Source of the DNA: Dehalococcoidia bacterium
GTDB taxonomy: Bacteria > Chloroflexota > Dehalococcoidia > SHYD01
DNA: 59,826 nucleotides
Direction of reading: 5' to 3'
Assembly (NCBI GenBank): GCA_009692945.1
Contig: SHYD01000005.1
Span: 1-59,826, forward strand
The notes under the pieces are model-generated. The model was given only the letters and a program-made list of their open reading frames with translations. It made no database searches and had not been told where the DNA came from. Every line of letters starts with the position of its first letter. Position 1 is the stretch's first letter. Of this stretch, positions 7,990 through 54,095 are shown one piece after another. Made by a program: the position numbers and the translations under genes.

Positions 7990-8260
7990 TTGAGGGGCTA
8001 TCGGGCTCAGGAGCGGGAGTGCACGAGGGCGGCGGCCCTCGGCCGGGGGCGTGGGGGTGCCCCCCACAGAGAATTTCTCTCTCTTTTACCGGGGCGGGGG
8101 AGTGGCTCACGCAAGCTGAATCCTGTGTCTGAATAGATACAGAACCGGGAGCGTGGAAACTTCTCGCCGGACTCGAAGCGTATCGTGTGCGGCCGCCGGC
8201 CCGGCATACTGTTCGAGCGCAGCGAGAACCTGCGCCTCGTAGCGAGACTTACGTTCAGGA
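7990..8260 (+). repeat. Family A REP/MITE-like element, long form (core + GAATAGATAC tail + F hairpin module)
   Basis: Core GGGAGTGCACGAGGGCggcgGCCCTCgGCCGGGGGCGTGGGGGTGCCCCCCACAGAGAATTTCTC at 8015-8080; tail 8110-8260 homologous to 39130-39300 (rc). Confidence 0.8.
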
Positions 8261-12525: not shown

Positions 12526-12534
12526 CACAGTAGC

Positions 12535-12650
12535 GGGCCGTTGGGTTGGGGAGCGGGAGTGCACGAGGGCGCAGCCCTTGCCGGGGGCGTGGGGGTGTCC
12601 CCCACGCAGAATTCTCCCATCTTTTTTCCGGGGTGGCGGCAGGGTTCATG
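12535..12650 (+). repeat. Family A REP/MITE-like element
   Basis: GGGAGTGCACGAGGGCgcaGCCCTTGCCGGGGGCGTGGGGGTGTCCCCCACGCAGAATTCTCC...TTTTTTCC. Confidence 0.8.
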
Positions 12651-13868: not shown

Positions 13869-14297
13869 TCAGTCCACAACCGGACGGAACTGCGGCAGCG
13901 CCATGCCCTCTTCCGTCCGTTCGAAGGAGACCGACACCAGTTGCCCGATGGCCAACCCCTCGGTTGCGCCCCCCGGCAACCAGCTGATCATGAACAGCAG
14001 TGGCTGCTCCTCGAGTTCGACCAGCAGGTTCACGTAGGGCACCTCGCCCTCGAACCCAGCCACGTTGCGCTGCCGCATCACGGTGAAGCTGTACACCATC
14101 CCCCGTCCGCTGACGGGCTGGAACTTGAGGTCACGGGAGGAGCAGCGGTCGCACAGCGGCTGCGGCGGGTGGTTGTAGTAGCCGCAACCGCCGCAGCGCT
14201 GCACCACCAGCCGGCCCTTGCCGGCCGCATCCCAGAAGGGCTGGGTCAGCGCGTCGGGCTGCGGCAGCGGGCGGGGCGGGGTCCGGAGGTTATCCAC
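13869..14297 (-). CDS. Zn-ribbon/OB-fold protein (DUF35 family), partner of thiolase-like protein
   Basis: PFWDAAGKGRLVVQRCGGCGYYNHPPQPLCDRCSS + OB-fold; GTG start 14295-14297; overlaps downstream thiolase-like gene. Confidence 0.85.
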   Translation of the reverse strand: MDNLRTPPRPLPQPDALTQPFWDAAGKGRLVVQRCGGCGYYNHPPQPLCDRCSSRDLKFQPVSGRGMVYSFTVMRQRNVAGFEGEVPYVNLLVELEEQPLLFMISWLPGGATEGLAIGQLVSVSFERTEEGMALPQFRPVVD

Positions 14298-14330
14298 AGA
14301 TTTGCAGGATTTTCACAGATTCAGAATAGT
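14290..14330 (+). repeat. Family B element (3 x 11-bp phased CACAGAT; head is a perfect TTATCCACA)
   Basis: TTATCCACAGATTTGCAGGATTTTCACAGATTCAG; TTATCCACA at 14290-14298 overlaps the DUF35 start codon. Confidence 0.8.
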
Positions 14331-14455
14331 CCCAAGTCCGGCGTTCAAGGTGCGAGGTTCGGGGAGGAACCCGCAGATGCGCCGGTCGCCGAAGTATCTA
14401 TTCAGACTTAAGTGGCGGCTTTTCAATCGTTTTCCCACCCCGGCAAAAAGGTGGT

Positions 14456-14745
14456 TTTTCTGGGGGAACACCCCACAGGAGTGGGCAGGTTTCTCCTCGA
14501 TTATCCTCAACGACTGTGCTTCCCACCCACCCACCCAGTTCGTTTGTTCGTGGGGACACCCCACACCCCGGCAGAGGGGCTCCCGCCCCTCGTGCACTCC
14601 CCGGTCCGACCGAGCACGCCCAGGCACAAATTGAAAAGGTGCCCACTCCTATGGGAACACCCCCAAGGCCCCGTCCCTTCGACTCGCTCAGGACAAGCAG
14701 GATGGCATCGCACCCTGCACCCCCGTGCCCGAACTGCGACTCTAA
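14456..14745 (+). repeat. Left arm of ~290-bp inverted repeat bracketing the dioxygenase operon
   Basis: By-eye alignment to the reverse complement of 17420-17712 is collinear over the whole length at roughly three-quarters identity. Confidence 0.8.
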
Positions 14746-14774: not shown

Positions 14775-14935
14775 GCTTAGGGGCGACCGGGCTCAGGAGT
14801 GGGAGTGCACGAGGGCGCAGCCCTCTGCCGGGGGAGTGGGGGTGACCCCCCCCAAAGAGGATCTCCTCATTTTTCCTAGGGTGGGGGGAGTGGCCTATAC
14901 CTCCGAACCCCTGACACCGAATAGATACCGCCGGT
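14775..14935 (+). repeat. Family A REP/MITE-like element with GAATAGATAC tail
   Basis: GGGAGTGCACGAGGGCgcaGCCCTCTGCCGGGGGAGTGGGGGTGACCCCCCC...CTGACACCGAATAGATAC. Confidence 0.8.
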
Positions 14936-15001: not shown

Positions 15002-16390
15002 ATGGTAACCATCCTGCGGGCACGAGGGGACCGGTCGATCAGGTCGTTCATCGACTATGAGCGGGGCACCATAAGCCGGGAGCTCTACGTGCACCCGGAT
15101 ATCTTCGAGCAGGAGATGGAGCAGATCTTCCAGCGCTGCTGGCTGTTCCTGGGCCACGAGAGCCAGATCCCCAACCCCGGCGACTTCATCGTCAGCCGCA
15201 TGGGTACCGAAGAGGTGATCGTGGTCCGGGATCGCAAGGACAAGCAGATCCGCGCCTTCCTCAACTCCTGCCGGCACCGGGGTATGAAGGTGTGCCGGTA
15301 TGACCAGGGCAACAACCTGGTCTTCACCTGCCCCTTCCACGCCTGGACCTACGACACGGCCGGCAAATTGGTGGGCGTGGGCTATGGAAACCATCCGGAG
15401 GCCTACGGCGACACCCGTCCAGGAGATCAGTGGGGGCTGGCGCAAGTGGCCCAGTTCAAGAACTTCCACGGCTCGCTGTGGGCCACCTGGGACCCCAAAG
15501 CACCCTCATTCGAGGATTACCTGGGGCCCTTCACCGCGAGCCTGCGCCACTGCCTGCAATCGAGCGACGGTGAGGACGGTGGGCTCGAGATGTTCACCCC
15601 GTTCCAGCGGCACCGTCTCCCGACCAATTGGAAGGTCCCCGGGTTCACCTCGGTCACCGACGGGACCCATGCGGCCATGACCCACCGGTCCGCCGCGGCC
15701 GCGGGCCTGCACGAGGACCGGGGGCAGGGTAAAGCGAAGCCTGGCACTCCCTTTCCGCGAGAGATGTACGCCATCGGCGACCATAACCTCGGTCACGGCG
15801 GGCAATGCACCTTCTACAACCAGCCTGGCGTCCCCGACTACACTGACGAGTGGTTTGAACCAGGCGTCGACGACTACTTCCGCGAGACCGCGGGCCGCAA
15901 GGCCCAGTTATACGCCAACCGGGTCCTGGCGCCCCATGGCTGGGGTGGCGGGCACTTCGCCATCTTCCCCTGTGTGATGGTGGATAGCTGGCGGATCCGT
16001 TGGTACCACCCGCACGAGACGGGCATGGTGGAGCGCTGGACCCTGTGCGGCGTGGACAAGAACGCTCCGAAGCACGTGAAGAACGCCGTGCGCCATTATG
16101 TGCAGCGCTACAATGGGCCGACCGGCTTCTTCGAGTCCGACGATATGGAGAACTGGAACTACGTTTATCCCGCCAGCCGCGGTGTACGGGCGCGGAAGCT
16201 GGACTACTTTTTCGCCAACGGGCTGGGTCACGGGAAATACGACGACAGGCTCCCGGGCGTGGTGGTCAACGGCGCGTACACCGAAGAGGCCCAGCGCGCC
16301 CGTTTCAGCCGGTGGCTTGCGTTCATGGAAGCCAAGAGCTGGGATGACCTCTACCCGGTCAATACATCGAAGAACCACCGCATCTGGTAG
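15002..16390 (+). CDS. Aromatic ring-hydroxylating dioxygenase, large (alpha) Rieske subunit
   Basis: CRHRG...CPFHAW Rieske motif; 462 aa. Confidence 0.9.
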   Translation: MVTILRARGDRSIRSFIDYERGTISRELYVHPDIFEQEMEQIFQRCWLFLGHESQIPNPGDFIVSRMGTEEVIVVRDRKDKQIRAFLNSCRHRGMKVCRYDQGNNLVFTCPFHAWTYDTAGKLVGVGYGNHPEAYGDTRPGDQWGLAQVAQFKNFHGSLWATWDPKAPSFEDYLGPFTASLRHCLQSSDGEDGGLEMFTPFQRHRLPTNWKVPGFTSVTDGTHAAMTHRSAAAAGLHEDRGQGKAKPGTPFPREMYAIGDHNLGHGGQCTFYNQPGVPDYTDEWFEPGVDDYFRETAGRKAQLYANRVLAPHGWGGGHFAIFPCVMVDSWRIRWYHPHETGMVERWTLCGVDKNAPKHVKNAVRHYVQRYNGPTGFFESDDMENWNYVYPASRGVRARKLDYFFANGLGHGKYDDRLPGVVVNGAYTEEAQRARFSRWLAFMEAKSWDDLYPVNTSKNHRIW

Positions 16391-17419: not shown

Positions 17420-17750
17420 GTGTTCGGGGGTCGGACACGGGGGTGCAGGGGGCGAAGCCCCGCTGCTTGTCCTGGACCCGCCGAAGGGCCGGGGGTCTGG
17501 GGGTGTTCCCCATAGGAGTGGGCACCTTTTTGCTTCATGCCTGGATGAGGGCTTTGGGACGGGGGTGTGCAGAGGGGGCGAAGCCCCTTCTGCCGGGGCC
17601 TGGGGTGTCCCCACACACAAACGAAATGGGTGGGTCGGTGGGAAGTGCAGCCTTGGAGGTTGTCCGAGGAGAAACCTGCTCACTCCTATGGGTGTTCCCC
17701 CAGGAACAAGAACTTCTCTTTTCCTTGGGGGGTGGGGCCACCGACCGGGA
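17420..17750 (-). repeat. Right arm of ~290-bp inverted repeat bracketing the dioxygenase operon (outer tail resembles family A' tail)
   Basis: Reverse complement aligns to 14456-14745; 17690-17750 also matches 19730-19790. Confidence 0.8.
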
Positions 17751-23139: not shown

Positions 23140-23300
23140 GGGTGTACCTATTCAGTGTCAGGGGTTCGGGGGTATGAGCCACGCCCCCCACCCCAGGGAA
23201 AAAAAGAGGAGGATTCTCTGTGGGGGGCACCCCCACTGCCCCGGCAGAGGGCTGTCGCCCTCATGCACTCCCACTTCTGCGCCCGGCCGCCCCCAATAGT
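23140..23300 (-). repeat. Family A REP/MITE-like element with tail
   Basis: Reverse complement of the A core; head GTACCTATTCAGTGTCAGGGGTTCGG is the rc of the 14900-14935 tail. Confidence 0.8.
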
Positions 23301-23651
23301 GCCATTGCCACGCGCGGAGTGGAAGCTGCACAGGCCTTTAGCGTCGACCGCACGGGGACGCTCGGGGTTTTGCGCTTATGTCAACGGGCCGAGAGGGCCT
23401 CTAAGCTAACCCATCAACGGATTGTCAACAAATCGTGGAAATCGGCCGCTAAATGCCCTTGCTCGGAGGTACTCCCCTTGGTACCCTTAGACGTCCGCCC
23501 GGCAGGATGGCTTGCCGCACCGGCCAGCCATTCCAAGGAACTCCGAGCACCTCCCTGTTTGACGCGGCGCACCTACCGGTCCGCAGCTGGTGGCCCCTGT
23601 CCGCGGCATCATTTCATTCATCTCTCTCCCATCCGGTCCTGGAGGACTTGC

Positions 23652-25028
23652 ATGACACAGCAATCTGCGGACGATATCTGGTCCGCTGCCCTCGGTGAAC
23701 TCCAGGTCCAGGTGGCGAGAGCTAACTACGACACCTGGTTGAAGGACACCAAAGGCCTGTCCCTGTTGGGTGACGTGTTCACCGTCGGTGCTCCAACCTC
23801 CTTTGCGATGGAATGGCTGGACAAGCGCCTTACCGCGCTCATCCGCAAGACCGTGGCCGGCATCCTGGGGCGGGATGTCGAACTGCGCTTCGTGGTGCTT
23901 GATGCCAAGAACGCGGCATTGTTGTCGCCCTCCGGCGAAGCCCCGCAAGCCGGCGTGCCACCCTCCGTGCCTACGAGCTACCAAGGTGTCCGCCTCAATC
24001 CCCGCTATACCTTTGCCTCCTTTATCGTCGGAGCGCCAAACCGTTTCGCCCACGCCGCGGCCGCCGCGGTCGCTGAGGGTCCCGGCCGGAGTTACAACCC
24101 CCTTTTCTTATACGGCGGGGTGGGCCTTGGCAAGACCCACCTGCTCCACGCCATCGGTCAACACTGCCGGGCCGCGGGGCATAACGTTCTCTACATCACC
24201 TCCGAACAGTTCACCAACGAGTTCATCAACGCCCTGCGGGAGCGCAAGACCGAGGAGTTCCGAGCGAAGTACCGCGGCGTCGATGTCCTGCTCATCGACG
24301 ACATCCACTTCATCGCGGACAAGGAGCAGACCCAGGAGAGCTTCTTCCACACCTTCAACGACCTGCACAACGCCAACCGGCAGATCGTCATAAGCAGCGA
24401 CCGTTCCCCGCGATCGATGCCTCTCCTGGAAGACCGCCTCCGGTCTCGCTTCGAGTGGGGGCTCATCGCCGATGTGCAGCCGCCCGACCTCGAAATGCGC
24501 CTGGCCATTCTCCGAAGCAAGGTGGAGGAGGCACATTTGGCCCTGCCGGGTGAGGTGATCAGCTTGATCGCCCACCGTTTCCAGAGCAACATTCGTGAAC
24601 TAGAAGGGGCGCTTAACCGGGTCCTCGCCTATTGCCAGTTGCAACATACGGCCCCCACCCTGGAGATTGCCGAACAGGCGTTGGAACCATTGCTTCACCG
24701 CGCTGGCCGGCAACACGCCAACCCCACCCGCATTATCACGGCCGTTGCCGAGTACACCCACGTGTCGATTGAGGAGCTGACGGGTCCACGCCGGTCGAAG
24801 GACATCGCATTCGCCCGGCAGATCGCCATGTATGTCCTACGAATGGAGACCTCTCTTTCGTTCGCGGCGATCGGCGGCGCGCTGGGTAACCGGGACCACT
24901 CCACCATCCTTCATGGCTTCGAGAAGATCGCCGACGCGGTTGAAGCCAACACGTCGGTGCGGCGCACCGTGGCCGAAGTCACCAATATCCTGCGCGGCAC
25001 GGCGGGCCAGAACAGCATGACCGCCTGA
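23652..25028 (+). CDS. dnaA: Chromosomal replication initiator protein DnaA
   Basis: 458 aa from MTQQSADDIWSAAL; Walker A GGVGLGKTHL, LLIDDIHF, C-terminal DnaA-box-binding HSTILHG motif. Confidence 0.95.
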   Translation: MTQQSADDIWSAALGELQVQVARANYDTWLKDTKGLSLLGDVFTVGAPTSFAMEWLDKRLTALIRKTVAGILGRDVELRFVVLDAKNAALLSPSGEAPQAGVPPSVPTSYQGVRLNPRYTFASFIVGAPNRFAHAAAAAVAEGPGRSYNPLFLYGGVGLGKTHLLHAIGQHCRAAGHNVLYITSEQFTNEFINALRERKTEEFRAKYRGVDVLLIDDIHFIADKEQTQESFFHTFNDLHNANRQIVISSDRSPRSMPLLEDRLRSRFEWGLIADVQPPDLEMRLAILRSKVEEAHLALPGEVISLIAHRFQSNIRELEGALNRVLAYCQLQHTAPTLEIAEQALEPLLHRAGRQHANPTRIITAVAEYTHVSIEELTGPRRSKDIAFARQIAMYVLRMETSLSFAAIGGALGNRDHSTILHGFEKIADAVEANTSVRRTVAEVTNILRGTAGQNSMTA

Positions 25029-25099: not shown

Positions 25100-25335
25100 A
25101 ACAATCCCCTCGGAAAGTGGATAACCCACGCCCACCCGTGGATAACCACGCAATATGGTGGATAACCGCGGCGGCAACAACCCGTGCGGCCATCGTTATC
25201 GACTCCTGATCCCCAAAACCCCCAAGCGTGCCCGGTGCCTCCGTCCCCAGTTTCCACGCTCCATACTATGTATTGATGATCAGAGCGACATGGATTGAGT
25301 TTCGTTCCGGTTTATAATGGACCTGAGGTCTGCTG
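25100..25335. other. Candidate oriC: DnaA-box cluster plus AT-rich unwinding-type stretch
   Basis: GTGGATAAC at 25117-25125, 25138-25146, 25158-25166 (20-21 bp spacing), inverted GTTATCGAC at 25195-25203, AT-rich 25262-25335. Confidence 0.55.
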
Positions 25336-26595
25336 TTGATAGATAACGTCGTGATTTTCGCGGCCGCCGGTTCCGGCGGGAATGGGTCATTTTCGCTCCG
25401 GCGGGAGAGCCACGTCCCTCGGGGTGGGCCGGATGGCGGTGACGGGGGCCGCGGCGGGAATGTGACGCTGCGGGCAGAGCATGCCCATTACAGCTTGGCA
25501 CATCTTCGCAACCGGCAGCACTTCAAAGCAACGGCGGGTGGGAATGGCGGGGCCAGCCAGAAGCATGGACACCGGGGCGAGGACGTGGCGATCGGTGTTC
25601 CCCTGGGGACGGTGGTGTACGCTGAGGGAGGCGATGAGCCTATCGGTGAAGTTATCGAAGAAGGGGATACGTTGGTGTTGGCGACGGGCGGAAGAGGAGG
25701 AAGGGGCAACAAGCATTTCGCCACGGCTGTGAATCGCACGCCCCGGTTTGCCGAGAAGGGCGGCGACGGAGAAGAGGTGTGGTTTCGGCTGGAGTTACGG
25801 CTGTTGGCTGACGTGGCTCTTATCGGGTTCCCGAACGCGGGAAAATCGACGTTGCTGGCCGCGGCCACGCCGGCCAAGCCAAAGATAGCTGATTATCCCT
25901 TCACCACCATCGAGCCGCAATTGGGGGTGGTGGAGGTCGATTACCAACGTTTGGTACTGGTGGATATTCCGGGATTGTTGGAGGGGGCAGCCCAGGGTGT
26001 TGGGTTGGGCGACGAGTTTCTGCGGCATATCCAACGAACGAAGGTACTGGTCCACATGGTTTCCGGGGAATCTGAGGATCCGCTGAAGGATGTGCGGGCA
26101 GTCGATGCTGAACTGGCGGCGTTCGACCCCCGCTTGGCCGGCCGGCCACAGGTGGTGGCGGTGAACAAAATCGACCTGCCCACGGTGCGGGAACGGACCG
26201 CCGAACTGCGGATGGCCTTGGAGCCGCTCAGGCGTCCCATTTATTTCATTTCGGCCGAAACCGGGGAAGGCGTGCCGCAATTGATGCGAGCCGCGTTCGG
26301 GGCGCTGGCCAGTGCGGTCGAGCCGGCCCTGCCGGAGCCACAGCGAGAGGACTACAAGGTGTTCCGCCCCCTCGGCGAGGATGGCGAAAGGGTGGTGCGC
26401 CGGGAGGACGGCTCCTACCAACTGACCGGGTCCGGTGTCCCGGCGCTGGTGGTGGCGCGGGACGTGGGCAAGGGCGAGCTGGCGCTCATCATGCGGGAGC
26501 GGCTGCGGCGGACCAACTGGCGGCGTGCCCTGGAGCGGGCGGGTGTCAGAGCGGGAGACCGCGTCCTGGTGGGTGAGGTTCAGGTTGACTGGTAG
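25336..26595 (+). CDS. obg: GTPase Obg/CgtA
   Basis: TTG start; Gly-rich Obg fold GGNGSFSLRRE...GGPDGGDGGRGG, G1 GFPNAGKST, G3 DIPG. Confidence 0.95.
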   Translation: MIDNVVIFAAAGSGGNGSFSLRRESHVPRGGPDGGDGGRGGNVTLRAEHAHYSLAHLRNRQHFKATAGGNGGASQKHGHRGEDVAIGVPLGTVVYAEGGDEPIGEVIEEGDTLVLATGGRGGRGNKHFATAVNRTPRFAEKGGDGEEVWFRLELRLLADVALIGFPNAGKSTLLAAATPAKPKIADYPFTTIEPQLGVVEVDYQRLVLVDIPGLLEGAAQGVGLGDEFLRHIQRTKVLVHMVSGESEDPLKDVRAVDAELAAFDPRLAGRPQVVAVNKIDLPTVRERTAELRMALEPLRRPIYFISAETGEGVPQLMRAAFGALASAVEPALPEPQREDYKVFRPLGEDGERVVRREDGSYQLTGSGVPALVVARDVGKGELALIMRERLRRTNWRRALERAGVRAGDRVLVGEVQVDW

Positions 26596-27215: not shown

Positions 27216-28553
27216 TCACACCCCCGCGTGGTTCACCCCGGCGAGGACTTTGCGGTGTTCGTGGGTGGACTCGATCCAGGACACCTCCTCAGGGATCAGC
27301 ACCGCTGCGCCCCGCACCCGGTAGAGCTCGGGGTGGTGCACCGTGGCCGGTACGGCGCCCCGCTCACGGAGGTCTTGGGCCGCATGCAGCAGCGCCCGCC
27401 GTGCCGCGATGATGCCCAGGTCGGTGGTGCCGAGATGCTCGATGGTGCGGTCGTTGATCCGGCCCATGCTCAGTTGCACCCCCGCGTCCTGGGCCCAGAA
27501 CTCCGGGATACCGGAGTAGGTCTTGGTGCGCTGCACCGCGCGGTCGATGAAGAAGTCGTTCTCCAGGGTGGCCTTGGGCCGCCAGGCGCCGAAGGGCGCT
27601 GAGGTGGCGGGAGCGCGGTCCTCGGGCTCGATGTAGAACACGTTGCCGCGGATGCGGAATCCGCCCTTGACGAGGTTCTGCCCGCCTCGCTCCGATTCCA
27701 GCAGCGGCCGCAGCGGGTGGAAGTTCGCGCCCATGACCAGCGTGTTCTGATCGTCGATGGGAACCCAGCAGCGCCAGGTGCGCATCGGATTCTCGCCGTA
27801 GGGCCCGGTCATGGTGTGGTAGGGGTACAACCACTGTGTGAGCCTCCAGTAGCGCAACCCCTCGCCGGCCTTCCGGCCCGACCCGATGAGCACCCCGTAG
27901 TCCGTCTCCTGGATCTTGAACTGGGGGGCGGTGTCCACCGCCCGGATGCGGGCTACGCCGTTGCGGGGAGAGAGATCGTCGTCGGGGTTGAGCATGGTGT
28001 GGAGGAAGGAGTTGTGGCTCTGGTCGATCTCCCCCTCCATGGCCTGCACCCAATTGGAGTACTGCACCCGCTTGGAGAGCCAGCGTTGCGCCGGAGGCAC
28101 CAGCGTGACCTCGAGTTCGGGGAGCGGCGGCACAGAGTCGCCGGCGCCCATGTAAGCCCAGACCATGCCGCCATGCTCGACGCAGGGGTAGGCCAAGTGG
28201 CGGATCTTGTGCTTGAAGTTGCTCTCGGCGGGCTCGTTGGGCATGTCCACGCAGTTGCCGGAGGCTTCGAACTTCCAGCCGTGGTACACGCAGCGTAGCC
28301 CGCCCTCCTCGTTGCGCCCGAAGAACAGCGAGGCGCCCCGGTGCGGGCAGTTGGCGCCCAGCAGCCCGACTGTGCCCGCACCGGTGCGGAAGGCGATCAG
28401 GTCTTCGCCCAACAGGCGGACCCGCAGCGGCGGCCCGTCTGGCGGCAGCTCATCAGGGAACAGGAACGGGTGCCAGTACTGCCGCAGCAGGCCGCCCATC
28501 TCCGTACCCGGGCCGATCCGCGTCAGGCGCTCGTTCTCGGCTCGGCTCAGCAT
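27216..28553 (-). CDS. Rieske (2Fe-2S) oxygenase, KshA/phthalate-family alpha subunit
   Basis: CPHRGASL...CVYHGWKF Rieske motif; 445 aa; no adjacent beta subunit. Confidence 0.9.
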   Translation of the reverse strand: MLSRAENERLTRIGPGTEMGGLLRQYWHPFLFPDELPPDGPPLRVRLLGEDLIAFRTGAGTVGLLGANCPHRGASLFFGRNEEGGLRCVYHGWKFEASGNCVDMPNEPAESNFKHKIRHLAYPCVEHGGMVWAYMGAGDSVPPLPELEVTLVPPAQRWLSKRVQYSNWVQAMEGEIDQSHNSFLHTMLNPDDDLSPRNGVARIRAVDTAPQFKIQETDYGVLIGSGRKAGEGLRYWRLTQWLYPYHTMTGPYGENPMRTWRCWVPIDDQNTLVMGANFHPLRPLLESERGGQNLVKGGFRIRGNVFYIEPEDRAPATSAPFGAWRPKATLENDFFIDRAVQRTKTYSGIPEFWAQDAGVQLSMGRINDRTIEHLGTTDLGIIAARRALLHAAQDLRERGAVPATVHHPELYRVRGAAVLIPEEVSWIESTHEHRKVLAGVNHAGV

Positions 28554-28574: not shown

Positions 28575-28607
28575 TCATCCACAGATTGGCACAGATTTTC
28601 GCAGATG
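28575..28607 (+). repeat. Family B element
   Basis: TCATCCACAGATTGGCACAGATTTTCGCAGATGAG, 22 nt upstream of the Rieske oxygenase start; short inverted CCGCAGATTATCGG-like partner near 28642-28660. Confidence 0.8.
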
Positions 28608-28938
28608 AGAAGCTGGTCGACTACCGCGGCCGGCGATATCCGATAATCTGCGGCCCTTGCTGGAGTTGGTTGGGGTGGATCTGCCAGGTAAACGCGTGCT
28701 GCAGCGGGCGTTCGAACTCTGGCTGAACACACCGGTGGGGTTAGCCCAGAGCGAGGGGGTTGGCGACATGCCCTGAAGCCGAGGGCATGGGACAATGGGG
28801 CGACCGGGGAGGCGATCCGGGCTGGAACCCTTCGCGTTGCGACCCTGCCCTCCAGCGGCTATCATGGCTCCATTCCGCCTTCCGGATGGCCGCACGCTAA
28901 AGTCGTGACCCCCGGCGGCGCATTGAGGAGCGCTAGCT

Positions 28939-30039: not shown

Positions 30040-30048
30040 TCCCCGAAG

Positions 30049-30080
30049 GATCCGCAGATGGACAGGATTTGCGCAGATAT
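30049..30080 (+). repeat. Family B element
   Basis: GGATCCGCAGATGGACAGGATTTGCGCAGATATTGG, 10 nt after the Gfo/Idh/MocA stop. Confidence 0.75.
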
Positions 30081-30129
30081 TGGAAAGATGATACTGGGTA
30101 GCCATGAGTAACTGTTCACACTCGGGATA

Positions 30130-30240
30130 CGGCCTCCGGACCGGGAGTGCACGAGGGCGGTCAGCCCTCTGCCGGGGGCGTGGGGGATGGCCCCCACACC
30201 CAAAGGTCTTCTTCGGGGGGGTTGAGGGAGTGGCTCAGAT
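30130..30240 (+). repeat. Family A REP/MITE-like element
   Basis: GGGAGTGCACGAGGGCggtcaGCCCTCTGCCGGGGGCGTGGGGGATGGCCCCCACACC...GAGTGGCTCA. Confidence 0.8.
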
Positions 30241-31119: not shown

Positions 31120-31336
31120 GTACCCACAGATTACACAGATTTGCAGAGATTCCGGAGTGGTTTGGGGTGGGGGCGTGGCAGCAATGAATACGTTGCCATC
31201 CCGGGAACGGCGCGTACGGTGTAGGGGCGAATCACCATTCGCCCGGCAGACCCGAGGCGGTTGCCGGCCGGCTCGACGGCACAGACCACGCCCATCCGCC
31301 TCCCAATCTGTGAAAATCCTATGAATCTGTGGATCA
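31120..31336. mobile_element. MITE-like unit: two family B elements in inverted orientation flanking a GTAG-headed REP hairpin
   Basis: CCCACAGATTACACAGATTTGCAGAGATT (31122-31150) vs rc GATCCACAGATTCATAGGATTTTCACAGATTGGG (31304-31336); GTAGGGGCGAATcaccATTCGCCC at 31221-31244. Confidence 0.4.
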
Positions 31337-32065: not shown

Positions 32066-32149
32066 GGTCGCGATGCCTGTAGCGGCGACGCATGCGTCGC
32101 ACCCGCACGCCGGCAAACCCACGAACTAGAACGCGGGGTTTCGAGATGG

Positions 32150-36688: not shown

Positions 36689-36722
36689 GTTATCCGCAGA
36701 TGACACAGATGGCCGCAGGTTC
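36689..36722 (+). repeat. Family B element
   Basis: GGTTATCCGCAGATGACACAGATGGCCGCAGGTTC. Confidence 0.8.
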
Positions 36723-36774: not shown

Positions 36775-37250
36775 GGTGTGCGGGCAGGGAGGGGCACGTT
36801 GCAACGTGCCCCTACGCCGGTGCGATACGCGTGGGGGAGCGGGAATCCGGGTAGCGGCGACCCATGCGTCGCACGGACGGGACGGCGGCGACGCATGGTG
36901 GCGGCCACGAGGCGGGGTGCGGGCGCCGGCACGTTGTCCTGGGGCGATGCCTCAGGCTGGTATAGAATGGGCCGGTGGCCCTCCCTGACCAACGTTACGT
37001 GTCGGACTAACCAGCTGGCGCGGGCCGCGGCGCGGGGCACGTTGTCCTGGGGCGATGCCCCAGGCTGGTATCGAACGGGCCGGTGGCCCTCCTGATCCGC
37101 GCCCCGACCTGGCGATCAAGCCGATGACCGGGCCGGCACGTTGTGCTGGGGTTCCCCCGAATCAGGCCGCGCCAACGGCGCACCCCATACCAGCCTGGGA
37201 CATCGCCCCAGTTGGCGCCGCCACCCATCGCGGGCGGGCCGGGCGCCGCC
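36775..37250. repeat. Cluster of family C palindromic REPs plus ~90-bp tandem/inverted D repeats
   Basis: GGGGCACGTTGCAACGTGCCCCTAC (36791-36815); GTAGCGGCGACcCATGCGTCGC; D unit GGCACGTTGTCCTGGGGCGATGCCyCAGGCTGGTAT.GAA.GGGCCGGTGGCCCTCC at ~36929-36985 and ~37026-37082, partial inverted copy ~37137-37215. Confidence 0.75.
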
Positions 37251-37899: not shown

Positions 37900-38310
37900 G
37901 GTGCGGCAGCACCGGAATGCTGCGCCCGGAAGCGGGGTGTCGCGGCGACGCATGCGTCGCCCCACCGAGAATGAAGAAAGGGTTGTTGCCCTTGGGGGGG
38001 ACACGCTCAAGCACCGTGCCGAAGGGTTTGGCGGAAGGTAGAGGCACGTTGCAACGTGCCCCTACGACGCAACGACTGCGCGCCCTTCGGGGCAGGGGCG
38101 GGTTGCAAACCCGCCCGATGTCGGATGAGGTGCGCGTGGTTAACGTCACAACCGGTCGGTGTACGGGGCCGGACACGGGGGTGCAAGGGAACGATGTAGG
38201 GCCGACGCATGCGTCGGCCCTACATCGTTTAGACAGCCGAGGTCAATCTGGGGCAACCCTTCCTCGAACATTGGCCCGCTGGCGGTTTCAAACCCGCCCC
38301 TACGATTCGT
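37900..38310. repeat. Cluster of family C palindromic REPs
   Basis: GGCGACGCATGCGTCGCC (~37937); GTAGAGGCACGTTGCAACGTGCCCCTAC (~38039-38066); GGGCGGGTTgcaAACCCGCCC (~38098); 34-bp perfect palindrome GATGTAGGGCCGACGCATGCGTCGGCCCTACATC (~38192-38225); AAACCCGCCCCTAC (~38290). Confidence 0.8.
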
Positions 38311-43552: not shown

Positions 43553-43654
43553 GTTAACCCTCCCTAACCGTGCTACAAGACGTTTCCTGTACCCGTATTT
43601 TGGTCGTAGTTTAAGGGACTGTGCGGCGCTCGGAACCAGCCTCGGCCTGATCGC

Positions 43655-43775
43655 CCGCCCCACCCCAGAAAAAACAGGAGAATTCTATGTGGGGGGCACC
43701 CCCACTCCCCCGGCAGAGGGCTGTCGCCCTCGTGCACTCCCACTTCCGAACCCGGCCGCCCCGCAACAGTGAACT
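43655..43775 (-). repeat. Family A REP/MITE-like element
   Basis: GGAGAATTCTATGTGGGGGGCACCCCCACTCCCCCGGCAGAGGGCtgtcGCCCTCGTGCACTCCCAC. Confidence 0.8.
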
Positions 43776-45074: not shown

Positions 45075-45235
45075 AGAGTTGAGGGCTGCCGGGCTCAGGA
45101 GCGGGAGTGCACAAGGGCGGTAGCCCGCCTGGTTGTCCTGATCTCGTCGAAGGGCCGGGGGCGTGGGGGCGCCCCCAAACAGAATTCTCCTCTTTCCCCT
45201 GGGGTGGGGGGAGTCGCTCGCATCGCCCCAACCCT
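45075..45235 (+). repeat. Family A element with ~25-bp insertion in first hairpin
   Basis: GGGAGTGCACAAGGGCGG...(insert)...GGGCCGGGGGCGTGGGGGCGCCCCCAAACAGAATTCTCC. Confidence 0.75.
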
Positions 45236-48719: not shown

Positions 48720-48865
48720 TATTCCGTGTCAGGGGATCAGGAGGTAAGAGCCACGCCCCCCACCTCAGGAAGAAAAGAGGAGAATTCTATGTGGGGGACA
48801 CCCCCACTCCCCCGGCAGAGGGCTGCCGCCCTCATGCACTCCCGCTTCTGAGCCCGGCAGTCCCT
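48720..48865 (-). repeat. Family A REP/MITE-like element with tail
   Basis: TATTCCGTGTCAGGGG...GGAGAATTCTATGTGGGGGACACCCCCACTCCCCCGGCAGAGGGCtgccGCCCTCATGCACTCCCGC. Confidence 0.8.
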
Positions 48866-48959
48866 CACCTGTGACTCTTGCCCCACCTGCCATCACACGC
48901 TTGATCCGGCGCTCAGGTGCTATAATCCGGGCTGAACATCCGTTCCGAAGGACCGCCCT

Positions 48960-51782: not shown

Positions 51783-53523
51783 ATGTGCGGCGGTATTTCG
51801 ATGAGCATGCAGGAGCCGATGGCGCGCACTAACACCAGGCCCGCCGCCTCCCCTTCCGAGGAAGCGGTTTTTGCGACGCTGCAACTGGTCCAAGCCCTAT
51901 CGGGCATGGAACGGCCCTTCATTGCTCAGACCAATGAGGGAACCTTTGAGTTCACGGGGTTGTCCGCGGATGGGCAGGGACCCGAAGCTATCGCCCTCGG
52001 CCCCTCAACGGCAACCTACTGCGCACGGGTGGTGGCAACCGGGGCGCCCCTGGCGGTTGACAATGCCCATTTTGAGGACCCAACGCCGGGGTGAGGCGGC
52101 CGGACCGGACCGGAGATTCCGCAGCGTCATCGCCGTGCCCCTGATGTTGAGTTCCGGGGAAGTGTTCGGTGTGTTGGGCGCCCTCCATCCCCTGCCGCGC
52201 CGCGGCGGGTCCGAGGAGCTGGACCGCCTCGACCAGCTCGGGCGCCTGGTGGCCAACGAATTCGAACACACGGAACTGATCGTCCAGCTCCGGAGGGAGC
52301 ACGAGTTGGCCGAGCGCAGGCGTCGCATATCGGAGGGCTTGCAGGAGTCCATTGAGCTCCTCGACTCCGGCATATCGCTCTCGGAACTCCTGGGCACGGT
52401 GGCGGGCAATGCCACCGCCGCGTTGGGCGCCGGCGCCGTGGGCATCTATTTCTTGAGCGACGACGGCGGCTCCCTGCACCTTGCTGCCTCCGCAGGACTC
52501 GATGCGGCGTTGGCGGCACGTCTTGCCTGGCCGATTGGCCTGGGCCCGACCGGTGCTGCGCTGGCCCAGCACGACTGCTTTCTTGCGAGCTGCGATGAAA
52601 CGGTCGATGAACTGGCATCGCAACGGCAACCGGACGACGAACTGCTGCTGGCGGCTTCGGCGCTTGCGGCGCGCTTCGGGTTCGAGTTGGCCGTGCCCGT
52701 GCTCTACGGCGGAAGCGCCGTGGGGTCCATCTCGTTCTGGTACGAGACCTCGCCGGAACCGCTCAGGGATCACTTGGTGCTGGGCCGTTCGCTGGCCGAC
52801 CAGGTGGGCCTGGCCTTGGCGCACCATCGCCTGCAACAGCAGGCCGCCATGCTGGCAGGCCAGACGGAGCGGAACCGCTTGGCCCGCGATCTTCATGACG
52901 GCGCCACCCAAACGCTGTTCGCGGCGTCGCTGTTGGCGGATACCCTCCCCGCCATCCTGGCGCCCGACCCCGCCCAGGCAAGTGAAGCGGCCCAGGAGAT
53001 CGGGCGCCTGTGCCGCGGTTCCCTGATAGAAATGCGGTCGCTGCTGCTGGAACTGCGTTCAGAAAGCCTGGAAGGGATGTCGCTCGCAGAGATTCTCTCT
53101 CAGTTGTGCGCAGCTTTCGAAGCGCGCTCCATGATCCAAGCTACGCTCCAGGCTCAGGCGCCCCCGCCGGTGGCGGTGGCCGTGAAGCGGGCCGTGTTTC
53201 GGGTAGCCCAGGAAGCCCTGGGCAACATCGTTAAACACGCCCGCGCGACCGAGGCCACCGTCACGATGGCTCCCTATGGCGGCGGCGGCTTGGTGCTCAC
53301 CATCAGTGACAATGGCCGGGGCTTCGACCCACCCAGCATCCGGCCCGGTCACTGGGGCCTCAAACTCATGCAGGAGCGGGCCTCGGATATCGGCGCACGG
53401 TTAGAGGTCAGCAGCCGGCCCGGCGGCGGCGCCACGGTGCAATTGCAGTGGGATGGTCCCGAGGGTCCCGCTGCGACTGATCACCACAGAGACGGCGGCG
53501 CGGCCTTCCGGTTACCGGGGTGA
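51783..53523 (+). pseudogene. GAF-GAF-HisKA_3-HATPase sensor histidine kinase with frameshift inside the first GAF domain (or sequencing error)
   Basis: Frame 1 ends TGA 52092-52094 after ...TYCARVVATGAPLAVDNAHFEDPTPG; the GAF continues DRRFRSVIAVPLMLSSGEVFGVLGAL in the ORF-51871 frame; shift at CCGGGG run; ERNRLARDLHDGATQTL H-box. Confidence 0.65.
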
Positions 53524-54095
53524 CCGGAAGGCCGCGCCGCGTGCTGATTGTCGAAGACCAACTCATGGTCCGGCGCGCATTGAGACTGGCGTTCAGAGCC
53601 TTCGACGACATAGAAGTTGTCGGGGAGGCGGTGGACGGCCCCGAAGCGCTGGAGGCGTGCGGCCAGTTGCTCCCGGACCTGGTGCTGCTGGACCTCATCC
53701 TGCCCACCACCAATGGGGCGCAGGTGACGCACCTGTTGAAGCAGCGCCACCCCGAGGTCCACATCCTCGGCCTGACCAGCTTCGTGGACAGCCCTCTGGT
53801 GACCGAGATGCTGCGGGCGGGCGCGGCCGACTGCCTCCAAAAAACGGTGACGCCGTCTGAGATGGTGGCCGCAATCCGCCGCGGCGTCGGACGGCCCGCC
53901 CAAAGTCATCCACAGATTGAGGATGTATGTAAGATTGCTTCATGGATGAGTTCATTGCAGAGGGGCCGTTGGGTTGGGGAGTGGGAGTGCACGAGGGCTG
54001 CCGCCCTCTGCCGGGGGTGTGGGGGTGTCCCCCAAAGAGAATTCTTCCCTCTTTTTCTGGGGTTGGGGGTGGAGGTTCATGCCGCCGGCTCCTGA
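53520..54095 (+). CDS. Response regulator receiver protein lacking an output domain; ORF 3' part is read-through into repeats
   Basis: REC domain VLIVEDQ...LVLLDLILP...LTSF... ends ~53890; from 53906 the ORF translates family B and A repeats until TGA 54095; GTGA overlap with kinase stop. Confidence 0.7.
   Translation: MTGRPRRVLIVEDQLMVRRALRLAFRAFDDIEVVGEAVDGPEALEACGQLLPDLVLLDLILPTTNGAQVTHLLKQRHPEVHILGLTSFVDSPLVTEMLRAGAADCLQKTVTPSEMVAAIRRGVGRPAQSHPQIEDVCKIASWMSSLQRGRWVGEWECTRAAALCRGCGGVPQREFFPLFLGLGVEVHAAGS
53906..53940 (+). repeat. Family B element (degenerate 2nd/3rd subrepeats)
   Basis: GTCATCCACAGATTGAGGATGTATGTAAGATTGC. Confidence 0.65.
53960..54078 (+). repeat. Family A REP/MITE-like element
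   Basis: GGGAGTGCACGAGGGCtgccGCCCTCTGCCGGGGGTGTGGGGGTGTCCCCCAAAGAGAATTCTTCCCTCTTTTTCTGGGG. Confidence 0.8.

Follow-up and report, generated by a model that had tools for sequence, protein, structure and literature searches.

Short interspersed palindromes of bacterial genomes, REPs and MITEs among them, are normally lineage-specific, and REP families are usually confined to a species or a genus. Repeats of the E. coli and Pseudomonas REP/REPIN–RAYT type are short, extragenic and high in copy number; they occur both as inverted, hairpin-capable doublets and as many singlets, lie tight against gene ends, and lack target-site duplications. A REP unit, an imperfect palindrome of 20–40 nt, carries a GT[AG]G (or CGTC) tag at its 5′ end. 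Bacterial MITEs such as Correia/NEMIS, ERIC/IRU and RUP have a short non-coding core between terminal inverted repeats; they are intergenic and multi-copy, and display insertion polymorphism between relatives. In the TIRtron/TIRYT systems (Di Nocera 2013; Quentin 2018 subclass 2.1), dispersed families of inverted repeats are found in Acidobacteria, Planctomycetes and similar groups, and the associated proteins carry a DnaA-like HTH. The terminal repeats (TIRs) of TIRYTs share the motif GGGGWSAS (Di Nocera et al., PMC3733652), and Y1 transposases of subclass 2.1 have Bac_DnaA_C-like or HTH_23/28-like tails with no identified cognate REP (Quentin et al., PMC6006769).

The repeat family analysed here, whose unit we term an arm, shares with REPs and REPINs the organizational traits just listed, but the arm is neither an imperfect palindrome nor tagged, no flanking Y1 transposase was found for it (one large Y1 family tested), and its sequence is conserved across phyla. 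With MITEs it has in common terminal inverted repeats of about 28 bp, a short non-coding core, an intergenic multi-copy distribution and insertion polymorphism; it differs in the lack of a target-site duplication and of a parent IS with the same ends in the examined loci, in cores as short as 2–15 nt, and in its spread over more than 10 phyla. It resembles TIRtrons in its dispersed inverted repeats, but its motif is CRCAGAT rather than GGGGWSAS, and arms do not co-occur with the tested Y1 genes. Like DnaA-box clusters (oriC, datA, DARS), it presents box-like 9-mers in one orientation, and some arm heads are identical to the genome's own DnaA box; unlike those clusters, it has CRCAGAT and not TTWTNCACA as its core, with G and A alternating at a critical box position, and it shows no link to origins, no conservation in relatives and a patchy distribution among bacteria. 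The combination of heptamer-triplet arms, absence of tag or duplication, and cross-phylum conservation is unusual among interspersed palindromic repeats. We favor the view, with a probability of roughly 0.6, that each unit is one arm of a short interspersed palindromic element, MITE/REPIN-like, selfish and non-autonomous.

The window, that is the whole stretch of DNA analysed, is an entire contig of 59,826 bp from a Chloroflexota MAG assembled from a freshwater metagenome, with about 66% G+C; several repeat families crowd its intergenic regions. It contains dnaA at 23220–25028 (Pfam) and an ORF at 25336–26595 that is presumed to be dnaN. Three GGTTATCCAC oriC-type boxes lie between these genes at 25116–25165. 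The candidate oriC, which occupies 25100–25330 in the same interval, contains three GTGGATAACC boxes at a spacing of 20–21 bp and, about 100 nt further on, an AT-rich stretch at 25260–25330. The cumulative GC-skew minimum is nearer 14–16 kb, in a window too short for the skew to be decisive.

The original prediction listed seven copies of the repeat. All seven sequences are present, and six of them are real copies, far beyond chance. A position weight matrix (PWM) was trained on 212 arms from other phyla, none of which satisfies the pattern used for the genome scan described below, so that circularity was avoided. It finds exactly six matches in the window, scoring from 21.8 to 37.3 bits. In 100 composition-preserving shuffles of the window there were no matches of at least 20 bits, and the mean number at 14 bits or more was 0.06. 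On its own, the 7-mer CRCAGAT shows just a mild enrichment in the window (22 occurrences against 13.4 expected, a count reached by 3 of 100 shuffles), and the signal thus resides in the triple arrangement. The seventh copy is doubtful, since it scores below 5 bits.

Four of the six arms are solo. The arm at 14290–14322 on the + strand, TTATCCACAGAT-TT-GCAGGAT-TTT-CACAGAT-TC, scores 32.4 bits. As had been claimed for it, its head is a perfect TTATCCACA that overlaps a gene start codon, here the GTG of the longest DUF35/ChsH2-like ORF (13869–14297, − strand; Pfam); the head has GGTTATCCAC in common with the three oriC-type boxes at 25116–25165. The best match (37.3 bits) is the + strand arm at 28575–28608; all three of its units are intact, and it lies 22 nt upstream from the start codon (ATG) of a Rieske oxygenase gene (27216–28553, − strand). 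AATCTGCGG on the opposite strand at 28644–28654 is possibly the decayed partner end of this arm. The solo arm at 30048–30080 (+; given earlier as 30049) scores 21.8 bits and lies about 10 nt past the stop codon of a GFO/IDH/MocA gene. It opens a lineage-specific insertion of about 195 bp that also contains a repeat of the family we call GGGAGTGCACGAGGGC (30123–30240). At 36690–36722 (+; earlier 36689), a solo arm of 36.6 bits, TTATCCGCAGAT-GA-CACAGAT-GGC-CGCAGGT, directly follows a GC-rich hairpin, about 93 nt past the stop of a gene encoding 1187 residues.

The only complete, two-armed element in the window spans 31120–31336, between the stop codon of a FAA-hydrolase gene (31107) and the start of a moaD-like gene (31366). 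Its left arm (31120–31152, +) and right arm (31304–31336, −) score 35.0 and 28.8 bits and have their heads outward. They are separated by about 150 nt that include a GTAG-headed hairpin, and they form the outer stem when the DNA is folded, with a z-score of −3.0. The doubtful remnant, at 53906–53936 (+), has kept its first unit, TCATCCACAGATT, alone, and falls where the receiver domain of ORF 53520–54095 ends (Pfam). In this response-regulator ORF the receiver domain comprises residues 8–120, and the reading frame runs on through the remnant and a GGGAGTGCACGAGGGC repeat, reaching its stop about 70 codons later. Because the frame reads through these repeats, the C-terminal tail is apparently encoded by repeat insertions.

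The placement of the copies at gene boundaries holds as predicted, within 10–30 nt for five copies and at about 93 nt for the arm at 36690. Two other features of the prediction do not survive. The heptamers were described as recurring at offsets 0, 11 and 22, and the actual offsets are 0, 9–10 and 19–20. The orientation said to be shared by the copies is that of 5 of 6, which is not statistically meaningful.

The arm unit can be written ATC-CRCAGAT-TN-CRCAGAT-T(T)K-CRCAGAT and is 28–30 bp long. It is thus a run of three direct heptamers behind an ATC head, with no self-complementarity and no GT[AG]G or CGTC tag. A scan of one genome per species with the pattern ATCCRCAGAT-N8-11-TTKCRCAGAT returned at least 120 stretches, against roughly 35 expected by our own calculation. 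The stretch left unspecified in the pattern reads T-W-C-R-C-A-G-A-T in about 90% of the matches listed. Conservation ends with the arm, and flanks and loops are variable. In an unbiased logo of 166 arms, the positions before the first heptamer are A in 75%, T in 86% and C in 96%; farther 5′ there is a weak preference for T and nothing else is conserved. Within the lineage of the window, the conserved arm reaches further 5′ as CCSGRAGG(T)(T).

About two-thirds of arms have an inverted partner 2–140 nt away, with the ATCC heads outward; the remaining third are solo, as are most arms in the window. Among the 127 pattern matches listed, the partner lies 3–130 nt downstream in 86 and upstream in 13. 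This asymmetry identifies the canonical element as two arms with their ATCC heads outward. Loop length varies from 2 to about 140 nt, and no motif is common to the loops of different genomes. Within pairs the heptamers are invariant, and the variable spacer bases of the two arms agree no more often than by chance. The combination of invariant heptamers and non-covarying spacers is read as recognition of a sequence in duplex DNA, and not as selection for a hairpin. Paired arms do agree in their choice of A or G (79% of cases, with about 53% expected), but this choice is also correlated within arms, and the agreement may therefore reflect genome-specific variants. Arms also occur in tandem arrays: as direct repeats in a Chloroflexota MAG (L051:105–280) and a WOR-3 MAG (L054:680–924), with periods of about 47 and 45 nt, and in a Gemmatimonadales MAG (L065:4390–6720), where the tandem unit is about 275 bp long and comprises a whole element together with its flanks.

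The elements are intergenic: 38 of 171 lie inside crudely called ORFs, as against 464 of 600 random positions. The orientation classes of the flanking genes are those expected for random intergenic sites, with divergent, tandem and convergent spacers all in use, and solo arms show no significant strand bias relative to transcription (34 versus 22). When 2,732 ORFs near arms were compared all against all by BLAST, no recurrent gene family emerged; the largest cluster drew on 4 loci, and the clusters inspected are housekeeping enzyme families. Arms are scattered at many positions along Mb-scale contigs.

Dispersal is of the copy-and-paste kind. Within one genome, complete elements with related loops are found at sites with unrelated flanks, as in three loci (L130, L135 and L156) from a single contig. 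Six copies of the element lie on one phage-like contig, and two, oppositely oriented, in locus L092. Activated-sludge runs, probably of DNA, cover the two elements of L092 at about 3–14 times the depth of the flanks; in these runs many contigs share the arms and diverge exactly at the arm head, and arms with other loops are seen. Target-site duplications of 1–6 nt, sought at offsets 0–3 around 93 paired elements, show no clear excess over shuffled flanks; a few direct-repeat matches stand at or just above the shuffled maximum, and these are small in number. The flanks share only an ambiguous, self-complementary AT, and the palindrome sometimes extends into them. No autonomous copy, with arms around a transposase gene, was found in about 1.3 Mb of arm-bearing loci; widely spaced head-out pairs enclose a GNAT toxin–antitoxin pair, phage baseplate/terminase genes and unrelated ORFs. 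At L020:641–3020, an arm pair lies in frame inside a long ORF that joins alcohol-dehydrogenase-like and GFO/IDH/MocA-like parts, with the arm translated as PQITQITQ. This ORF may have arisen by a gene fusion mediated by the element, or may be an ORF-calling artefact.

Comparison with close relatives reveals gain and loss of individual arms. The Rieske, GFO/IDH/MocA and FAA-hydrolase genes of the window are also present on contigs from four relatives, and in the three that were measured the GFO gene is 87–91% identical to that of the window at the nucleotide level. The spacer between the GFO and FAA genes is 40–41 bp in the relatives (L174–176, L258 and L259) and 234 bp in the window, where it contains the arm at 30048 and the lineage-specific repeat. 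No relative carries an arm beside the Rieske start, the orthologous position of the arm at 28575 being without one in L174–176 and L258; in the L174–176 lineage an arm lies elsewhere in the same spacer, with its head towards the GFO gene. Since arms of the window are missing or shifted in its relatives, they have been gained and lost on a short timescale and are not conserved regulatory sites. The insertion polymorphism suggested as a check in the original prediction is therefore present, the window differing from L174–176, L258 and L259.

The taxonomic distribution is broad and uneven. When phylum is assigned from record titles, the 120 scan matches listed include about 27 from Chloroflexota, 20 from Planctomycetota, 19 from Verrucomicrobiota/Lentisphaerota, 14 from Acidobacteriota, 9 of Desulfobacterota type, 9 from Pseudomonadota (one alphaproteobacterium among them), 5 from Gemmatimonadota and 4 from Nitrospirota. 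NC10, WOR-3, cyanobacteria, Bacteroidales and Treponema are also represented among the matches listed, together with two archaeal bins that may be mis-binned; Actinomycetota and Bacillota contribute none of the 120. The motif occurs in addition in 49 IMG/VR stretches and in Bacteroides finegoldii records; GenBank phages and 5,426 E. coli genomes gave no matches. Carriers include the cultured Asticcacaulis sp. AC402, Kouleothrix aurantiaca COM-B and Lyngbya sp. CCY1209, Ca. Leptofilum proximum from activated sludge, and the complete chromosomes OY970273.1, OZ241372.1 and JADJXK010000002.1. Some record titles are doubtful. Two loci (L110 and L027) are titled Akkermansia muciniphila, and L110 matches only freshwater and lake metatranscriptomes; a B. 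finegoldii “plasmid 45” (L177) carries the chromosomal housekeeping genes xseAB and trmB.

Several other explanations must be weighed against a mobile element. The first part of the original prediction held that the arms are clusters of DnaA boxes that titrate or regulate DnaA near the origin. In such clusters DnaA would bind the TTATCCACA-like head and spread to the next two box-like 9-mers. The window is indeed a dnaA–dnaN origin region, the heads at 14290 and 36690 have GGTTATCC(A/G)C in common with the oriC-type GGTTATCCAC boxes, and the unit in a 9-bp frame, GATTNCRCA, matches the box consensus TTWTNCACA (as quoted in PMC6006769) at 6–7 of 9 positions with the same variable fifth position. 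Across the family, however, TTATCC heads occur in only about 11% of the 166 unbiased arms, and of the 9-mer head ATCCRCA alone is conserved; arm units do not match the full consensus. The position at which A is expected is G in 50–66% of units, the best-conserved part, CAGAT, falls outside the box, and the boxes abut at 9–10 bp. Arms are dispersed along large contigs, neither dnaA nor dnaN occurs in any of about 170 arm-bearing loci, E. coli lacks arms altogether in the genomes searched, and orthologous sites are not kept in close relatives. With a head that conserves only ATCCRCA, no linkage to origins and alternation of G and A, DnaA titration or regulation is not supported at the level of the family and is very improbable, although DnaA could bind incidentally to the perfect box at 14290. 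The resemblance of GATTNCRCA to the DnaA box also made a partner with a DnaA-like HTH seem plausible, and the arms might then be REP/REPIN-type repeats moved by a Y1 (RAYT/TIRYT) transposase, with the subclass bearing a DnaA-domain-IV-like HTH as the candidate. The doublet-plus-solo organization and the absence of target-site duplications are reminiscent of REPINs, the units are DnaA-box-like, and Y1 genes of class 2 are almost lacking in Actinobacteria and few in Alphaproteobacteria, groups that are likewise absent or rare among the arm matches listed. One large Y1 family was retrieved with an approximate, motif-based consensus query that matched thousands of real Y1_Tnp proteins; 504 kb of metagenome contigs around 80 of its genes contain no arm, and for this family the partnership was rejected. 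Four further loci (about 73 kb) hold a single solo arm, 4 kb from a Salinisphaera-type gene, and no Y1 gene is close to any arm in the 1.3 Mb of arm loci. Given also that arms lack a GTAG or CGTC tag and that known TIRYT TIRs are GGGGWSAS, a Y1 partner has only a slender chance of being correct.

A chromosomal host protein, which might be a nucleoid-associated factor or a global regulator, would account for the arms as arrays of binding sites that are kept for their function and are not mobile. Invariant heptamers phased about one helical turn apart in inverted arrays fit such a protein, as does the presence of the motif in both host genomes and phage-like contigs. The operator arrays of the original prediction agree with the observations to this extent, but the period is 9–10 bp and not 11, no gene or gene class is associated with the arms, and the phyla are patchy, with Actinomycetota and Bacillota missing from the 120 matches listed. 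Moreover, arms differ in presence and position between close relatives, and whole elements with genome-specific loops have been copied to unrelated sites; we consider a fixed host-factor site unlikely. A role at the RNA level, in which the long hairpin would act as a terminator, an mRNA stabilizer or an RNase III site and spread would be secondary, is more doubtful still. Paired elements do fold into long hairpins, the window pair with a z-score of −3.0; cmscan gives only sub-threshold matches, to miRNA-precursor models; on one phage-like contig the elements fill gaps between co-directional genes; and a T-rich run follows a Bacteroides finegoldii copy. Against this, there is no orientation bias with respect to transcription, elements occupy divergent intergenic regions as frequently as any others, and the flanking sequence is rich in T on the upstream side and in A on the downstream side, opposite to the composition of an intrinsic terminator. 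Many arms are solo, conservation extends to the sequence although structure alone would be enough for such a role, spacers do not co-vary, and no terminator-like site is found at the window copies. Promoter and terminator readings were both rejected, on the lack of consensus sites at the window copies, the reversed flank composition and the absence of orientation bias. The remaining proposal, that the copies are terminal inverted repeats of a MITE, comes closest of the three originally put forward: the inverted arms, the complete copy at 31120/31304 and the insertion polymorphism agree with it, but no target-site duplication was found.

In the MITE/REPIN-like element that we favor, a complete copy consists of two arms, inverted with heads outward, around an unconserved loop of 2–140 nt, each arm being ATC followed by three CRCAGAT heptamers at a 9–10-bp period. 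Membership of the family, the build of the arm, the confinement to intergenic DNA, the copy-and-paste spread and the turnover between close relatives are shown directly; binding of a protein to the heptamers and mobilization in trans are inferences. The heptamer triplets would serve as duplex-DNA binding sites for a sequence-specific protein, a transposase or similar. This protein, supplied in trans, would mobilize the element and would itself have spread by horizontal transfer. The family in the window would then be old and decaying, represented by one complete element (31120–31336), four solo arms and one doubtful remnant, all against gene boundaries. The identity of arms across phyla could, alternatively, reflect a conserved host factor instead of horizontal transfer.

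Other repeats share the intergenic regions of the window with the arms. The GGGAGTGCACGAGGGC family has a unit of about 110 nt, GGGAGTGCACGAGGGC-N-GCCCTCTGCCGGGGG-GTGGGGGTG.CCCCC-A-rich/T-rich-GGGGTGGGG, with copies at 7992–8100, 12532–12640, 14778–14886, 23183–23303 (reverse complement), 30123–30240, 43652–43772 (reverse complement), 45083–45217, 48754–48874 (reverse complement), 53960–54092 and elsewhere. Its signature 13-mer, GAGTGCACGAGGG, occurs, among 259 loci, only in close relatives of the window. The family contains GGGGWSAS-like motifs, such as GGGGACAC, of the kind known from TIRYT terminal repeats. A GGGAGTGCACGAGGGC repeat lies 40–75 nt downstream of an arm in 3 of 8 cases. A composite of the two was considered and rejected; because the linkers are unrelated and the GGGAGTGCACGAGGGC repeat is lineage-specific, the two are treated as separate modules.

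Hairpins of classical REP form with a GTAG head (for example GTAGGGGCACGTTGCAACGTGCCCC, GTAGCGGCGACGCATGCGTCGC and GTAGGGGCGAATCACCATTCGCCC) occur at 31219–31243, 32078–32103, 36795–36819, 36850–36875, 37938–37963, 38045–38069 and 38195–38220, and suggest a RAYT-type system in this genome. An inverted repeat of 218 nt (14455–14672 and 17492–17709, 76% complementary) surrounds 2.8 kb that includes a Rieske-domain gene at 15002–16390; it may be a composite of intergenic repeats that brackets the gene. The long non-coding stretch downstream of the arm at 36690 contains, at 36912–37211, two 73-nt direct repeats that are 86% identical and 108 nt apart, together with an inverted copy, with the sequence CTGGGGCGATGCC.CAGGCTGGTATMGAA.GGGCCGGTGGCC.

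Searches for an existing description of the arm gave little. Rfam has no matches in the window, and canonical elements yield only sub-threshold miRNA-hairpin matches under gathering and E-value thresholds. A full-text search found no paper with 14–16-mers of the arm in the literature covered, and an existing IS or MITE entry is possible. Surveys of REPs and Y1 transposases do not describe a CRCAGAT motif (two were searched for CAGAT/ATCTG). We tentatively suggest, at somewhat less than even odds, that the CRCAGAT-triplet arm defines a previously undescribed palindromic family present in more than 10 phyla and in phage genomes, and that its near-invariance implies a single DNA-binding protein or transposase, spread by horizontal transfer, that belongs neither to the classical RAYTs nor to the known IS transposases.

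For annotation, the window carries a warning: 9-mers that resemble DnaA boxes and lie close to an origin can be remnants of repeats. The arm is common to Chloroflexota, Planctomycetota, Verrucomicrobiota, Acidobacteria, Gemmatimonadota, Nitrospirota, Desulfobacterota, some Proteobacteria, Bacteroides and phage-like contigs. Because repeats of this kind are normally lineage-specific, near base-for-base sharing of the arm across phyla would be unusual and, if true, would point to a widely transferred system of DNA recognition. The arm would then provide a handle on genome plasticity in little-studied environmental phyla, a marker of horizontal transfer, and a DNA bait for the protein that recognizes it.
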